Virus record (IMG/VR): IMGVR_UViG_2861038214_000003
Location: 1-47,202 of that record
From: a virus
Lineage: Duplodnaviria; Heunggongvirae; Uroviricota; Caudoviricetes
DNA: 47,202 bases
Reading direction: 5' to 3' (one strand)
Shown piece after piece: positions 1 to 25,966 of this stretch. Both the position numbers and the translations under genes were made by a program. Each line of letters opens with the position of its first letter. The first letter of the stretch is position 1. The notes beneath the pieces were generated by a model, which did not search any database, was not told where the DNA came from, and saw nothing but the letters and a program-made list of their open reading frames with translations.

Positions 1-79
1 GTCATAGAACTTCCATTATTCTCCTGAAGATAATAATCGCCAAATAAACCAATACTCAGCTTTACAATATACTAACTAA

Positions 80-113
80 CCGCAGAACGTTATTTCATAC
101 AACGTTTCTGCGG
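80..113 (-). other. Inverted-repeat hairpin (about 12-bp stem) just downstream of the tfa fragment stop; no T-tract
   Basis: ccgcagaacgtt ... aacgtttctgcgg read directly from the sequence; no flanking U-run on either strand. Confidence 0.3.
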
Positions 114-128
114 CATATCACAAAACGA

Positions 129-311
129 TTACTCCATAACAGGGACAGCAGGCCACTCAATATCAGGTGCAGTTGATGTATCAACACGGTTCAGCAACAC
201 CCGATACTTCTTCCAGGCTTCCAGCAACGAGTTTTCTTCCTCCGTTGCGATCTCCAGCTCAACAACAGTCTGAACGTACCAGGAACAGCCTCCTTCAGGG
301 CTTGAAGGATA
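129..311 (-). pseudogene. tfa: Tail fibre assembly protein (Tfa) C-terminal fragment, no start codon, in frame immediately after the stf TGA stop
   Basis: Hand translation of the minus strand after the stf stop gives [60 protein letters not shown], which resembles the conserved Tfa C-terminus. The N-terminal ~130 aa of a normal Tfa are absent. Confidence 0.6.
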
Positions 312-3300
312 TCAATGTTCGCTTCCTGTTAACTGCCCGACAAGTGCAACCAGTTCGCTTACCTGATTTTCCAGAGTGCTGATCCGGGTGCCTGCTGTTG
401 CCATATTTTTACGTAGCGTTATGTTTTCCTCTTCCAGCGCGGTAACGCGACCATCTGTTTCACGGGCGACCTGAACAAGTAACCCCGTCACGGCGGAGTA
501 GTCAACATTAAGATAGCGAGTTTCTTCGCGTAGCTCGTTGCCGTCAACGGTCGGACCTTGCAACTCTTCACCATAATGAGTAAACGATCCCACAGCTTCA
601 GGTATCGCCTCCATTACTTCCTGTGCAATAACGCCAGCATAAGGCATTCCGTTTTCCTTGAGCGTGTAGGTGTACCCGTTCATTTTACGGATTGCTTTCG
701 TCGCGTCGCTGATAACGCGAATATCGTCTTTAAGGTCGCGGTCTGATGACTGATTCAGCGTTGTGCAATTAATAGCGCCATTTACATCAAACAACTGGCC
801 TGCTGATGTTTTTTGCGCATAAAACAGATACGCAGCAGACGTTCCAACCTCAAAAACGTTTTGTCGATCACTTGATCCCCATACTTTTGCGGCAAATGAT
901 AGTTCTGTATTACCTAAGTTCTGTAAAACAAAACGATTGCCAGTCCCTGATTGCTTTGTAAGGGTTAAATCAACAGTTGAGTTAACCTCATCCTTGTTGA
1001 TAGTGAGCGCCTGCGCTTTAGCCCCGTTAACAGCACCTGTTTTGAGTTGAACCGCGCCGTCATTACCATTTAGCAGTATCTCAGCTCCGCTAAAGAAATT
1101 TTTTAGCGACAGCATCTTACTTACGCCGACTGATGAACCCAACGCCCACGCGAGAGAATTACCGGTGCTATCAAACCCACGTACAAAGCAATCCATTTTG
1201 CTATAGTCTGACGTGCTTCCAAGGACATCAATCCGCCCTCCGCCAGATTTTAACGGGTTAGATGTGGTTAATGACCTGACAGCAAGATCGGTGGATGAAT
1301 TTAGATCGTCTACTGTTAGTAATTTCTTCCATTCCTGCATCGTTCCGTTTTCAACTGTTCTTCCCCAAAAACCGGAATTGCGGCCTCCGAACTGCACAGC
1401 ATAATTTTTACTAAATTGAACATGAATGCCGCCAAGAACCATAGAACCTGCCGGGCCGTTTGTACTGCCTGCGATTGGTCTAAATTTGTCGACGTTATCA
1501 GTATGCTGAGAGTTCCAGTCATGACCTGTTAATGTTGCGATTCCTGAGTTAGCTGTAATTAACCCAGACGCTTTAAGATTTTGCACATCAATTCTGTCGT
1601 TTGCGAAATTATATGCAATTGCGTTACTAACGCTTCCGGCATCATCATAATCGCGTTTCTGAATAAACCAGTCGCCAGCATTAGCAATGAGAGTATAAGT
1701 AGGCGTGTTAGCCGGGCGATCTGTTTCATTAAATCTTATTGCTGGGTTAGCGCTCCTTATTTGTAAAGGTTTTTCAACCGTTGATTTCAGTATCGCACTA
1801 TCTACAATTAAATTACCTTCTGAGTTAAGGTTTAGATATTTTGAAGCACCAGTTGAACCATCGTATGTAAACCTTATTGTTAATTGACCTGGCTCATTTG
1901 ATAAAGTCTCAACATACATATCAGCACCAAGACGCACAGTGCTGTCAGTTGCTAACAGTCTTGTATGGAGAATACCACTAGATGTGTATGTATTGGTCGA
2001 ATCACTATATCTATCAAGAAATAGACTGTTAAGTTGAGGGCTATTACTCCTGCCTAATCCAAGATTCGTTCTGGCACCATCAATAGTTGCCGCACCAGTA
2101 CCACCATGAGAAACATCAAGCGGTATCCATTTTTTTTGTGTGTCGCTGTAACACCCCCATGTTGATCCGGTTAAACCCAGGCGCATGGATTTATCATGGT
2201 TATATAACCATGTTTCGCTATTCCATTGGTCAAGACGGTCCACTTCATTTTTGCGAGCGTGGCGTGTCCATTGCGGGCCTGTTGTCGGATTCCAGCGATA
2301 AGTATAAAGCGAGCGCGTAGCCCATCCCTGAAATACACCTGTATACGCTGGTGTTCCATCTACCTGACTAATAAACCCCGTAAGACTGCTTTCACCGGAT
2401 GCAATCGATGGAAAGCCTTTTGCATTACTCATAATGCGCATAAATCCGATATACCCTGATGGGTTGCCGGAAATATCAGGACAATCACGCGGGGCTGAGC
2501 CAAGACCGATATTATCGCCAACAATTACTTGCGCCTGGTTGCGATAATTAAGTGCGTCCGCCGCAGATTTCGCCGCGTTTGTTTCACTGGATTTAGCATT
2601 AGTTTCGCTGGCTTTAGCGTTTGTTTCGCTGCTCTTTGCTGCTGCCTCGCTATTTTTCGCGTTGGTTTCTGATTTTTTGGCTGCTGTCGCGGAGTTTGCC
2701 GATGCAGTTTGTGAGGCCGCTGCCGCCTGTGCGCTGTTATCCGCATTCGTCTCAGACGTTTTTGCGGCCTTCGCGGAATTTCCTGCCGCCGTTGCCGAGG
2801 AAGCTGCACTACTGGCACTTGATGATGCGTTCGTTTCTGATGATTTCGCTGCCTCTTTTGAGGCCGCCGCATCCCGGGCTGAGGTGGCAGCTTCTGACGC
2901 TTTCGTGGTCGCGGTGGATGCAGAAGTGGCGGCTGATTGTTGTGACGCTGCCGCATTCGTTTCTGACGTTTTCGCCGCACCGGCACTGGTGGCCGCCGCG
3001 CTTTTTGAGGACTCTGCAGCGGCAGCACTTTTTGATGCTTCAGTAGCCTTTGTTGATGCCGTTCCTGCGCTGGAAGACGCTGACTGAGCCGACGACGCGG
3101 CCTGTCCGGCTGACGTGCTGGCTGCGCGTGCTGAGTCTGCAGCATCAGTCGCATGGGTTGCCGCCTCACGGGCTGATGTGCCGGCATCGCCGGCTGACTT
3201 CTTCGCGGCTGCCGTGTTCTGTGCCACCGCGGACGCGTTACGCGCCACCTCTTCCACCATCAGCTCAAAACGGCGCAGTGCCTCCGGACGGACATCATCC

Positions 3301-3584
3301 TCCGTCATGGCACCAAGAAAATCATTCAGCGTACCGGGTTGAGAATCTTCATACACGGTGATGGTCCCGGCATGTGACGGCGGGAACCCTTCCACCAACA
3401 GAATAACGCTGTACTGACCGTACTCAACGTCCATGCTGTAACGCCCGGCTTCATCCGGATTTTCAGATGCCAGCGTGTTCACCACCACCGTGGTGCTGTT
3501 ACGTTTTGCTTTCAGCTGGATTGTGCAGTTCTGTACCGGTTTTCCTGTGCCGTCTTTCAGTACACCTGAAATCTTTACTGCCAT
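312..3584 (-). CDS. stf: Side tail fibre protein (Stf-like) with Ala/Ser/Thr-rich repeat region and a C-terminal intramolecular chaperone (peptidase S74-like) domain
   Basis: 1090-aa ORF, GGGGGG RBS before the ATG at 3584. The C-terminus (..GVIAQEVMEAIPEAV..LNVDYSAVTGLLVQVARE..ALEEENITLRKN..) matches my recollection of the autoproteolytic chaperone domain of endosialidase-type fibres. Position downstream of J and lom. Confidence 0.85.
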   Translation of the reverse strand: MAVKISGVLKDGTGKPVQNCTIQLKAKRNSTTVVVNTLASENPDEAGRYSMDVEYGQYSVILLVEGFPPSHAGTITVYEDSQPGTLNDFLGAMTEDDVRPEALRRFELMVEEVARNASAVAQNTAAAKKSAGDAGTSAREAATHATDAADSARAASTSAGQAASSAQSASSSAGTASTKATEASKSAAAAESSKSAAATSAGAAKTSETNAAASQQSAATSASTATTKASEAATSARDAAASKEAAKSSETNASSSASSAASSATAAGNSAKAAKTSETNADNSAQAAAASQTASANSATAAKKSETNAKNSEAAAKSSETNAKASETNAKSSETNAAKSAADALNYRNQAQVIVGDNIGLGSAPRDCPDISGNPSGYIGFMRIMSNAKGFPSIASGESSLTGFISQVDGTPAYTGVFQGWATRSLYTYRWNPTTGPQWTRHARKNEVDRLDQWNSETWLYNHDKSMRLGLTGSTWGCYSDTQKKWIPLDVSHGGTGAATIDGARTNLGLGRSNSPQLNSLFLDRYSDSTNTYTSSGILHTRLLATDSTVRLGADMYVETLSNEPGQLTIRFTYDGSTGASKYLNLNSEGNLIVDSAILKSTVEKPLQIRSANPAIRFNETDRPANTPTYTLIANAGDWFIQKRDYDDAGSVSNAIAYNFANDRIDVQNLKASGLITANSGIATLTGHDWNSQHTDNVDKFRPIAGSTNGPAGSMVLGGIHVQFSKNYAVQFGGRNSGFWGRTVENGTMQEWKKLLTVDDLNSSTDLAVRSLTTSNPLKSGGGRIDVLGSTSDYSKMDCFVRGFDSTGNSLAWALGSSVGVSKMLSLKNFFSGAEILLNGNDGAVQLKTGAVNGAKAQALTINKDEVNSTVDLTLTKQSGTGNRFVLQNLGNTELSFAAKVWGSSDRQNVFEVGTSAAYLFYAQKTSAGQLFDVNGAINCTTLNQSSDRDLKDDIRVISDATKAIRKMNGYTYTLKENGMPYAGVIAQEVMEAIPEAVGSFTHYGEELQGPTVDGNELREETRYLNVDYSAVTGLLVQVARETDGRVTALEEENITLRKNMATAGTRISTLENQVSELVALVGQLTGSEH
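2520..3190 (-). repeat. Degenerate in-frame tandem repeats (about 21 nt) encoding repeated (K/A)SSETNA-like heptads within stf
   Basis: Repeated units such as tttagcattagtttcgctgg / tttagcgtttgtttcgctgc on the plus strand; the protein shows KSETNAKNSEAAAKSSETNAKASETNAKSSETNAAKS. Confidence 0.7.
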
Positions 3585-3595
3585 ATTCCCCCCAC

Positions 3596-3622
3596 AAAAA
3601 AGCCCACCTGAACCGGCGGGCT
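3596..3622 (-). terminator. Candidate intrinsic terminator between lom and stf
   Basis: GC-rich hairpin (agccc...gggct) followed by a T-run on the minus strand. Confidence 0.4.
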
Positions 3623-3648
3623 GTCATAACACTGTGTTACCTGGCTAA

Positions 3649-4248
3649 TCAGAATTTATAACCGACACCCACGATGAAACCGTCAGTGCGCCAGTCACCA
3701 CTGCCAGAACCTTCATAAGCAATATCAATGGCCACGGATTCGGTCGGGTTAAACTGCACGCCAGCCCCCCACGCCAGAGACGTGTTGCTGTGGCGACCGT
3801 CATCACTTCCGGTCAGCACATCGTGCTTTTTCCCCTTGTTGTCAGTTACGCGGATATAATCTCCGGAGAAAGTCGAAACACGGCTGTAAGCCATACCCGC
3901 CATCGCATACGCGCTGAACCATTCATTCACGCGCACAGACGGCCCCGCCATCACGCTGAACCAGCGGTTACGCACTGAATCTTCATGCCAGCGGGTATCG
4001 CTGTAACGGGTCAGCTGGCGATTCTTGTCTCCTGCATAGCTGAATGACGTCACCAGCCCCAGCGTATCCGTAAACTCATAACGGTATTTCACGTTAATCC
4101 CGTTAAGATCATCGCTGCCGGGAACGTTCGTCGAGGCATGAAGATACCCCGCGCTCAGCGTGGACTGATGTTCAGACGCCCATGCAGGCGCACCGGATAC
4201 GACCAGACAGATGGCTGCGGACAAAATGGCTGCACAAACTTTACGCAT
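3649..4248 (-). CDS. lom: Lom/Ail-family outer membrane beta-barrel protein
   Basis: 199-aa ORF with a signal peptide; resembles lambda Lom from memory; ends ..GVGYKF. Sits in the canonical J-lom-stf position. Confidence 0.9.
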   Translation of the reverse strand: MRKVCAAILSAAICLVVSGAPAWASEHQSTLSAGYLHASTNVPGSDDLNGINVKYRYEFTDTLGLVTSFSYAGDKNRQLTRYSDTRWHEDSVRNRWFSVMAGPSVRVNEWFSAYAMAGMAYSRVSTFSGDYIRVTDNKGKKHDVLTGSDDGRHSNTSLAWGAGVQFNPTESVAIDIAYEGSGSGDWRTDGFIVGVGYKF

Positions 4249-4314: not shown

Positions 4315-7716
<3,402 letters not shown>

Positions 7717-14263: not shown

Positions 14264-14343
14264 TCAATGCGTCCCCCTGTAGGGCAGTACCACAGGAGGA
14301 ATAACGGAAAATCAACTAATCGCCTCAGCACTGGCTTTTGCGA

Positions 14344-15273
14344 TCACGGCAGCCGGGGAATTTTTTTTCTGGTTATCGTAGGTGCTTCATCTGCTGCGGT
14401 AATGCTCAATTGAACCTGGATAATGTCGCTATTACCCCCATCAGGCCATTCACCTGACACCTGAACCTTCGGGAAACTGAAAGTGTATGCCCCCTCTCCA
14501 TTCGAAAGCGTGAAGCTGAACGGAACTGTTTCTCCAGTCAGTGTTTTACTCCAGATTTCCCACGCGGCTTTAGACCATGAAAGCGTCACCGTACCGGACG
14601 GTGTAAAAGTAGTCGGAATATTTGCTCCTGCATAAGGCGAGCCAGTCCCGATACAACGCTGTGTCTGGAGTTTGTTATCGAACTGAATATCAAAACTGTC
14701 GATACAAAAACCGTTACCTCCGGCAACACCATTCAGGCTTACTGCTGAAACCTCCTTAAACGAATAACGTAGCTTTCCTGCACTATCCACAGGTTCGCCT
14801 TTGATAAAATTCGTATCATCGGCCTTTGATTCCCAGTCCAGTCCGGCAAAGGTTACGGTCGCTGTAATATCGCCGTCGTTAGGGATCTGCATTTTCCATG
14901 AGCCAACCTGCGCTCCTCTGACGACAGAGGCAATTCCGACATCGGACGCATAGGTCGCCAGAGAAAATGTTATTCGCTCATTCCCCATTGTCAGAGAATC
15001 GCCTGACCATTCCGCGCCGAAACAGGATGCAAGAAAATCATCATGTTGACCCCAGCGAAATTTGGTACCAACATCACCGCCGACATCCACAGTGCCAGGC
15101 GTCGCCCCCTGAGCCATCCGGGAGCCACCAATCTCATTATTTTCGCCTTTATTCTGGGTGGGTTTTACTCCCCAGCTTGTGCGTTTTAATAAACTCCAGT
15201 CACCACTTGCTGGCGTAGTGCCTGCAACCGTCTCCCGGATAAATGCCGAGATAACCTTTGCACCTGAACTCAC
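14344..15273 (-). CDS. Major tail (tube) protein, not lambda V-like in sequence
   Basis: 309-aa ORF in the slot between the tail terminator and G; assigned by position and size only. Confidence 0.6.
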   Translation of the reverse strand: MSSGAKVISAFIRETVAGTTPASGDWSLLKRTSWGVKPTQNKGENNEIGGSRMAQGATPGTVDVGGDVGTKFRWGQHDDFLASCFGAEWSGDSLTMGNERITFSLATYASDVGIASVVRGAQVGSWKMQIPNDGDITATVTFAGLDWESKADDTNFIKGEPVDSAGKLRYSFKEVSAVSLNGVAGGNGFCIDSFDIQFDNKLQTQRCIGTGSPYAGANIPTTFTPSGTVTLSWSKAAWEIWSKTLTGETVPFSFTLSNGEGAYTFSFPKVQVSGEWPDGGNSDIIQVQLSITAADEAPTITRKKIPRLP

Positions 15274-25203: not shown

Positions 25204-25966
25204 GCATGATCTCCACCATGCGCTGCGTCATCCGGACAAATCCATTTTCAATAGCCTGCTGATAATCAATGATCACCAGCGCCGACTCCTCGAAAAAACA
25301 CTGAATTTCAGAGGGGGCGTGAGCGTAATAGTCCGCAATTCTGCTGAAATTAAACACCGTGTGACGTTCTGCCGCACACAGGAGGAATTTCTCAATATCA
25401 GGCTCAAGGGACGCCGAACGTATCCGGCTGATCAGCTCCTGAGTTTTCGTATCGTCGTACAGTTCACTGATATCCGGTTTACCGCCCGACGGCTCATAAA
25501 CAGGCGTATCAATTTTCGTCGTATACGGCTCCTCCTCATTTCCTGTACCGGGCAAAACATCCGTCAACAGTTCATCAATTTCTGTCGGGATGAAGCCTGT
25601 CAGGGAGACATCAAAATCAGCATTGATTAGGTCCGACAGCTCCATCCGCAACAGATCTTCATCCCAGCCAGCATTCATCGGCAGGCGATTATCTGCCAGG
25701 CGGTACGCCTTTTTCTGCTCATCCGTCAGGCCAGACAGAACAATGACCGGAACAGAATCCATTTTGAGCATTTCAGCCGCCATAACACGACCGTGACCCG
25801 CAATAATTTCGCCCTTTTCGTCAATCAGCACCGGATTAGTCCAGCCGAATTGCTTAATACTTTCTACCAGTTGTGCCACCTGCTCAGTACTGTGCGTCCT
25901 GGCGTTGTGCGCATACGGTGACAATTCTTGTAATGGGCGATAGACTATCTTTAATTTCTCGCTCAT
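25175..25966 (-). CDS. ParB-like nuclease domain protein (ParB/Srx N-terminal fold), acidic C-terminus
   Basis: ..NPVLIDEKGEIIAGHGRVMAA.. is the ParB-Nterm GxxR-type motif. Confidence 0.7.
   Translation of the reverse strand: MSEKLKIVYRPLQELSPYAHNARTHSTEQVAQLVESIKQFGWTNPVLIDEKGEIIAGHGRVMAAEMLKMDSVPVIVLSGLTDEQKKAYRLADNRLPMNAGWDEDLLRMELSDLINADFDVSLTGFIPTEIDELLTDVLPGTGNEEEPYTTKIDTPVYEPSGGKPDISELYDDTKTQELISRIRSASLEPDIEKFLLCAAERHTVFNFSRIADYYAHAPSEIQCFFEESALVIIDYQQAIENGFVRMTQRMVEIMHGGEEEEYA

Follow-up and report, generated by a model that had tools for sequence, protein, structure and literature searches.

A side tail fibre ending in an S74 chaperone domain, with a tfa remnant behind it: a widely shared junction seen in a Rac-type prophage of Escherichia coli WI1

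The stretch of DNA analysed here (IMG/VR record IMGVR_UViG_2861038214_000003, positions 1 to 47,202; its full 47,202 nt are called the window below) carries stf, a gene for a lambda-type side tail fibre, and, directly behind the stf stop codon, a truncated piece of tfa, the gene for a separate tail fibre chaperone. How would such a fibre fold, and what is the tfa piece? Our answer, to which we give a probability of roughly 0.85, is that this is a lambda/Rac-type Stf protein in which a cassette made of a fibre tip plus an intramolecular chaperone has taken the place of the distal part, and that the 180 nt downstream of stf are the scar of this replacement. The elements concerned are the following.

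312-3584, minus strand: stf, the side tail fibre gene (1090 aa; stop codon TGA at 312-314), from the list of open reading frames (ORFs), Pfam and the Prokaryotic Genome Annotation Pipeline (PGAP).
2743-3584, minus strand: conserved stf 5' region, which encodes aa 1-280 with PF08400, from blastn against lambda and K-12 Rac and from Pfam; putative left homology arm of the cassette.
747-1580, minus strand: distal tip of the mature fibre (aa 669-946), presumed to bind the receptor, from blastn and blastp.
315-746, minus strand: Peptidase_S74 chaperone domain (aa 947-1090), from Pfam, homologue alignment, profile matches to the PDB, AlphaFold2 (AF2) and Foldseek.
744-746, minus strand: codon of Ser947, the predicted scissile and catalytic serine in NQS-S947-DRDLK952, from motif and alignment.
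729-731, minus strand: codon of Lys952, the predicted general base, from its invariance in 23 homologues and the T5 pb1 reference.
276-311, minus strand: filler of 36 nt (12 in-frame codons) that separates the stf stop from the tfa fragment, with no match in any intact Tfa of the phage collection; it marks the founder junction.
129-275, minus strand: tfa' pseudogene fragment comprising the 48 final codons of a lambda-type tfa and the TAA (129-131), from tblastn, Pfam and PGAP; putative right homology arm.
1-128, no strand: lambda-type tfa-ea47 intergenic region, 98% identical to lambda, with a strong hairpin at ~79-114.

The C-terminus of Stf belongs to the S74 family by sequence, motif, position and fold. 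Pfam Peptidase_S74 (PF13884) matched aa 947-998 with an E-value of 2.3e-14 (53.8 bits; cut-off 22), and the segment that starts at Ser947 forms the last 144 of the 1090 residues, the C-terminal location expected of this family. The original prediction, made from the sequence alone, had proposed an S74-type chaperone domain in the last ~150 residues and had suggested aligning it in search of a catalytic Ser-Lys dyad. The alignment revealed both residues. In S947-D-R-D-L-K952, the lysine follows the serine at +5, the family motif, with the same spacing as Ser1264 and Lys1269 of T5 pb1. Among 23 aligned homologues, down to 34% identity, Lys952 is invariant and Ser947 and Asp948 are at least 90% conserved. 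The Ser947 motif aligns with SSDRRIK of S16 gp37 (6f45) and with (A)DLRAK of 7dc3. When compared with the PDB, the homologue profile retrieved S16 gp37 6f45 (3e-12), the MYRF ICA domain 7dc3 (3.6e-5) and the GA-1 neck appendage chaperone 3gud (6e-3), and residue 1 of the 3gud chain falls exactly on the Ser947 column of the profile alignment. The AF2 model of the domain (predicted local distance difference test score 82.5) has strands at model positions 40-96 and a helix at 98-155, that is, beta-hairpins followed by a 58-residue C-terminal helix (aa 1029-1086), as in the S74 fold. Ranks 1 to 10 of the Foldseek search of the PDB are all taken by 7dc3, 3gw6 (the K1F endosialidase chaperone) or 3gud, with probabilities of 0.99-1.0. 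Family, dyad, profile and structure matches thus bear out the predicted domain, at 144 residues.

The characterized members of the family indicate what such a domain might do. The T5 pb1 counterpart of this domain (residues 1263-1396) undergoes cleavage at Thr1263-Ser1264, where Ser1264 lies close to Lys1269, and is released (PMC4690869). The known chaperone domains of this type, that of T5 pb1 among them, share with that of WI1 the C-terminal position in a trimeric fibre, the Ser and Lys at +5, a length of ~135-145 residues and a region of beta-hairpins that leads into a long coiled-coil helix; the Foldseek and profile matches are to 3gw6, 3gud and the related 7dc3. Nevertheless, the identity of the solved chaperones to the WI1 domain is only 13-23% in the Foldseek alignments, and the clients differ, a lambda-type side tail fibre in WI1 versus a T5 fibre or a tailspike; cleavage of the WI1 domain is predicted by analogy. 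By this analogy, the S74 domain would trimerise via its coiled coil and template the folding of the fibre tip. It would then cut itself at Ser946|Ser947, with Lys952 as the general base, and no trans-acting Tfa would be required.

Downstream of the TGA, the stf frame remains open for 60 sense codons (132-311), up to the TAA at 129-131. The original prediction had described a 59-codon remnant of the Tfa C-terminus that follows the TGA immediately, in frame and with no start codon. An in-frame Tfa C-terminus is indeed present, but there are 60 codons, only the last 48 of which (132-275) derive from tfa; in the proposed alignment of 129-311 to intact tfa genes, 132-275 aligned and 276-311 matched none. 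Residues 147-194 of lambda Tfa align to 275-132 at 85% amino acid identity (tblastn), and Caudo_TAP (PF02413) matches aa 14-57 of the post-stop stretch, with profile positions 87-130/131 and an E-value of 3.7e-20. At the DNA level, window positions 1-260 are 98% identical to lambda 22685-22426, which comprises the tfa 3' end and the tfa-ea47 spacer (megablast). The E-values place both the S74 and the Tfa homologies far beyond chance. The remnant contains the conserved C-terminal helical domain of Tfa and lacks the variable N-terminal fibre-binding domain (approximately the first 145 residues), as the homology starts at aa 147 of lambda Tfa. Since the C-terminal domain mediates trimerisation and the variable N-domain binds the fibre (PMC9608196), tfa' is a fragment without its client-binding part. 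It does not represent a complete, translatable tfa: there is no in-frame ATG or GTG, as predicted, and of start-type codons the frame has just one, a TTG at 225-227, which opens an ORF of 32 codons. PGAP treats 129-263 as a pseudogene for a 'tail fiber assembly protein' with its N-terminus missing.

In the phage collection, all matches to intact Tfa proteins begin at remnant aa 13, and aa 1-12, the filler, are matched by S74-type phages only. Searching 185,579 species-representative genomes twice for the exact pattern gave 0 matches that could have indicated the origin of the filler. We also considered it as a structured element, but the 7-bp hairpin that it can form (CCTTCAG...CTGAAGG-type) is no better than those of shuffled sequences (z -0.63). 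By contrast, RNA folding detected a hairpin at ~79-114 (z -3.5), which a terminator scan did not flag. It is the probable end of the stf transcript, and the remnant is most simply part of the 3' untranslated region of stf.

Comparisons with the two best-known relatives delimit the exchanged segment. Homology to lambda is found at 1-274 and 2743-3700 (blastn), and homology to K-12 Rac at 148-274 (the tfaR 3' end, 87%) and 2743-3838 (the stfR 5' end plus lomR, 96%). The ~2.5 kb between these arms are unrelated to both and represent a different fibre-tip cassette. The proposal that a fibre-tip module was exchanged by recombination is thus supported, the homology to lambda and Rac being limited to the 5' end of stf and the 3' end of tfa. 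Such events have experimental precedents: recombinants between lambda and K-12 Rac cross over in stf, with the right crossover located in a tfa region of 95% identity in a third of them (PMC3945230). Lambda Stf-Tfa and K-12 StfR-TfaR resemble the WI1 locus in their position after J and lom and in having in common the N-terminal 280 residues of Stf and the last 42-48 tfa codons. They differ from it in that Stf is unrelated from ~aa 281 and that tfa is reduced in WI1 to 48 C-terminal codons without a start; unlike K-12 Rac, WI1 has a lambda-type ea47 block downstream and no pin invertase.

At the proximal end of the fibre, the prophage tail fibre N-terminal domain PF08400 covers aa 1-134 (Pfam, E 3e-72), and together with its location downstream of J and lom, this identifies a lambda-type Stf. 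Over aa 1-280, the DNA is 89% identical to lambda stf and 96% identical to K-12 Rac stfR. We used DNA comparisons here, as BLASTP of Stf against StfR gave only weak low-complexity alignments and missed the near-identical N-terminus. The Stf product is identical to RefSeq WP_000279116.1, as annotated by PGAP on the 100%-identical NZ_LT838196.1 and named 'prophage tail fiber N-terminal domain and S74 family endopeptidase-containing protein'. An NCBIfam scan of Stf yielded zero family matches, and the PGAP name therefore presumably comes from the domain architecture. The Ala-, Ser- and Thr-rich repeats of Stf (KSSETNA-type, aa ~130-350; window 2525-3190) yield long artefactual ORFs, both in alternative frames and on the plus strand, such as 2662-3087 (plus) and 2525-3187 (minus), and an artefact like the orf206b of lambda is to be expected there.

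The distal part also has relatives in other phage families. Residues 669-1063, which include the tip and most of the chaperone, are 71% identical over 395 residues to the lateral tail fibre of FritzHoffmann (Bas20, MZ501068), and this part is also related at the DNA level to a T5-like phage fibre. FritzHoffmann, a virulent Nonagvirus, has in common with WI1 the module of tip and chaperone including SSDRxLKD; its N-terminal attachment part and phage family differ, and no tfa fragment is annotated downstream. The receptor specificity of the WI1 fibre is thus likely to differ from those of StfR and lambda Stf, as judged from this kinship. O-antigen glycans have been proposed as the primary receptors of such lateral fibres by the BASEL authors (PMC8594841), and the relationship of the tip to lateral fibres of virulent Queuovirinae hints at a surface glycan for WI1 as well.

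We then asked how widespread this arrangement is. A scan of IMG/VR with the S74 domain gave 80 loci, of which 48 lambdoid ones with enough downstream DNA were used to analyse the junction. The same TGA, 36-nt filler and tfa' were found in all 48, with the first 78 nt almost invariant. Beyond this, at least seven types of Tfa C-terminus can be distinguished in the 3' portion of the remnant (...AVPVME, ...PALP, ...VAPIG, ...VNPVWPPPSKR, ...EEPDTM, ...ANPVRE and ...AAPKCNSLELITCE), each with a different downstream flank. These mosaic endings match the pattern that repeated crossovers inside the remnant would be expected to produce. Among 5426 complete E. coli genomes, 804 harbour the junction, at 1377 places (median 2 copies per positive genome, maximum 5). 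S74 DNA has a matching distribution, being found in 802-812 of the same genomes at 1446 places. The exchange scar is therefore an old founder junction present in ~15% of E. coli genomes and not specific to WI1.

In 48 of 49 informative IMG/VR contigs, the filler directly follows the S74 stop. The exception, L119 (IMGVR_UViG_2908572912_000001), is a deletion derivative in which the 5' part of lom is fused to the filler and tfa', and stf is gone entirely. In five other loci (L018, L022, L038, L065 and L067), we found a second Tfa C-terminal fragment, corresponding to lambda Tfa aa 132-194, ~1.04-1.23 kb downstream of the S74 stop. L018 has a methyltransferase-like ORF on the opposite strand between the two tfa fragments and a GGDEF-type gene beyond, which suggests that cargo was inserted between duplicated tfa 3' ends in loci of this type. 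As for the donor of the S74 end, the 54-kb mEp044-like phages and the L084 group were examined. Their fibres have S74 domains, but they lack PF08400 and a downstream tfa fragment; they are plausible relatives of the donor, and no fibre with an identical 3' flank was identified among the S74-terminated fibres checked in these two groups.

Isolated phages carry the junction as well. The plaque-forming phages mEp460 (JQ182728), Ayreon (MF807953) and PhiR70_1 (PV340577) all have a PF08400-type N-terminus, the S74 domain, the TGA, the 36-nt filler and tfa', the remnants being 96%, 90% and 83% identical to that of WI1, respectively, at the amino acid level. They differ from WI1 in the 3' end of the remnant, in the downstream genes and in the fibre interior, which is mosaic: mEp460 matches 152-1529 and 2064-3700 and differs at 1530-2063, Ayreon matches 78-1280 and 2611-3700 and differs at 1281-2610, and PhiR70_1 matches 151-755 and 1564-3700 only. 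One internal breakpoint among S74-type fibres lies three codons upstream of Ser947. The 830-residue Stf of PhiR70_1 (L006 3889-3912) lacks the ~270-residue distal tip (window 756-1563), which places S74 almost directly on a more proximal part of the fibre. A natural pair illustrates the exchange: mEp460 has S74 and the remnant, whereas mEp460_ev081 has stf, an intact tfa and pin. The two are alike at 94% over J, lom and the first ~850 nt of stf, after which the similarity resumes only in the last 123 nt of tfa.

The sequence comparisons show how the locus came about. A single ancestral illegitimate junction joined an S74-terminated fibre end and the 36-nt filler to tfa codon 147; it deleted the variable N-domain of Tfa and kept 48 C-terminal codons, transcribed as 3' untranslated region up to the hairpin at ~79-114. 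The cassette has since spread among lambdoid prophages by homologous recombination, with the conserved 5' region of stf as one arm and, as the other, the tfa' fragment, which pairs with the tfa 3' ends conserved in resident prophages. The crossover on the right-hand side, in the case of WI1, linked the cassette to an ea47 block and a tfa 3' end of lambda-like type within a Rac-type prophage. We further suggest, quite tentatively, that tfa' acts as a portable right homology arm of a chaperone-independent tip cassette and that second-order selection on mobility has favoured its retention, an idea that we regard as possible but doubtful.

If Stf folds with the help of its own S74 domain, no other chaperone gene is needed nearby, and none was found. 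Besides the remnant, the 47-kb window contains no Tfa-like sequence. The original prediction would have been refuted by missing catalytic residues and an intact tfa to the left; the residues are present, and we found no intact tfa leftward of the remnant in the E. coli WI1 chromosome NZ_LT838196.1, to which window positions 1-1000 are 100% identical. The left flank consists of the lambda-type intergenic region and of 1.9 kb that match the lambda b region at 98% identity, with the 3' end of tfa, an ea47 homologue and beyond (L001 4378-6274), followed further left by the sitABCD iron/manganese transporter genes and uspF (L001 880-4329). In K-12, this end of Rac has pinR-ynaE-ttcC instead. In mEp460, Ayreon and PhiR70_1, too, there is one Tfa-like place per genome, the remnant. 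That Tfa is dispensable for the WI1 Stf is a reasonable inference. Closely related phages are known to alternate between intramolecular chaperone domains and Tfa chaperones (BASEL-related work, PMC11990801).

Several points nevertheless weigh against our reading. The AF2 monomer model superposes poorly on the solved chaperones (Foldseek template modelling scores of 0.33-0.47), because a monomer was modelled for an intertwined trimer. Autoproteolysis of Stf and its Tfa-independent folding are extrapolated from homologues. Lambda-type phages plate without side fibres, and the viability of mEp460 and Ayreon is for this reason no proof that Stf folds without Tfa. The tail tube gene of the window (14312-15273, minus strand) is annotated by PGAP as frameshifted, the ORF present there coding for only 309 residues (14344-15273). 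Tails of the WI1 prophage may therefore not be built, and its Stf may never reach a virion. Lastly, the open frame of the remnant has been kept in 47 of the 48 lambdoid IMG/VR loci. A recent origin and exchange with intact tfa genes could account for it, but so, less probably, could translation.

Some of these points would suit another explanation, in which the S74 domain is a decayed relic, Stf is non-functional or served by the chaperone of another prophage, and tfa' results from prophage decay by deletion. The frameshifted tail tube gene and ynaK (25709-25966), annotated by PGAP as truncated, are signs of decay, PhiR70_1 has a Stf without the segment at 756-1563, and many E. coli hold several tfa genes that could act in trans (a median of 2 places per genome match window 1-1000). 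However, stf is an intact ORF of 1090 codons, and Ser947, Asp948, Lys952 and the domain as a whole are conserved across diverged homologues. The 71%-identical module is the lateral fibre of a virulent phage, FritzHoffmann, isolated on K-12, with no tfa listed in the annotated 7.7-kb neighbourhood, and the identical junction occurs in plaque-forming phages. In addition, Tfa N-domains are specific to their cognate tips (PMC9608196), and a foreign Tfa is thus unlikely to serve an unrelated tip. We consider decay improbable on these grounds.

The frame that follows stf raises the question whether the remnant is expressed, either by readthrough of the TGA, which would extend the released chaperone domain, or as a 32-residue peptide from the TTG at 225-227; a helical trimerisation segment of Tfa type would then still aid fibre assembly. 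The open frame in phase with stf at 47 of 48 related loci speaks for expression, as does the nature of the fragment, the conserved Tfa C-terminal trimerisation domain (PMC9608196). The Ayreon authors also annotated a coding sequence over the remnant, a 63-residue 'hypothetical protein' (L004 4917-5108), which is probably an over-call. A TGA followed by T is not a notably leaky stop context. There is no ATG or GTG, and no Shine-Dalgarno-like sequence was seen upstream of the TTG. The polymorphisms do not suggest constraint on a protein either: in the first 27 remnant codons, 10 are non-synonymous and 3 synonymous, and each of the three that fall in the filler changes an amino acid, with Trp-to-Arg and Pro-to-Ser replacements among them at high frequency. 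The remnant of one relative (L023) has a frameshift, several unrelated endings have replaced the 3' ends, and PGAP calls a pseudogene. Sharing the frame of stf is the one-in-three outcome of a single ancestral junction and carries no functional signal. For these reasons, we rejected readthrough or a small-ORF function as highly improbable. Our preferred reading of the remnant is a scar of recombination that does not code and probably has no function as a protein.

That the arrangement arose locally in the WI1 Rac prophage, by insertion of an S74 end and deletion of the 5' part of tfa rather than by import of a pre-formed unit, is formally possible because K-12 Rac has stfR-tfaR at this place with the same flanking homology, but it is the least probable of all, as the identical stop, filler and tfa' occur in those 804 genomes, in three isolated phages and in 48 contigs of IMG/VR, where at least seven different contexts lie downstream, and as the DNA to the left in WI1 is lambda-like (the ea47 block) and not Rac-like, which points to imported DNA.

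The window corresponds to the Rac-type prophage of E. coli WI1, with intR, xisR, recET, racR, ydaS-V and trkG, and its lambda-like tail genes are on the minus strand. The WI1 chromosome has a second place, outside the window, that matches the S74 region and the junction (2 places in the record). Upstream of stf, the gene order J-lom-stf involves two further genes at the left end of the window.

4315-7713, minus strand: J, from the ORF list and PGAP.
3649-4248, minus strand: lom, from the ORF list and PGAP.

The combination of S74 and tfa' is common in E. coli, and both features are already annotated in RefSeq; in that sense, the arrangement is already known, and the WI1 locus leaves the current understanding unchanged. 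What our analysis adds is only at the population level, namely one widely spread founder junction with crossovers inside the remnant. A paper on co-transfer in lambdoid phages (PMC9836094) makes no mention of stf or tfa, and chaperones are not discussed in a 2024 Nature paper on stf chimeras. The remnant is best left annotated as a pseudogene. For those who build chimeras of lambda Stf, tips of the S74 type are expected to need no tfa. If tfa' does serve as a portable arm, the cassette, which carries its own folding domain, could replace any stf-tfa pair by one double crossover with no matching chaperone co-transferred. Such portability could explain why a single founder junction is found in ~15% of E. 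coli genomes and in at least seven downstream contexts. More generally, the locus is a clean example of two established principles: phage fibres are folded by a chaperone that acts in cis (S74) or in trans (Tfa), and fibre-tip cassettes are exchanged through recombination in conserved flanks.

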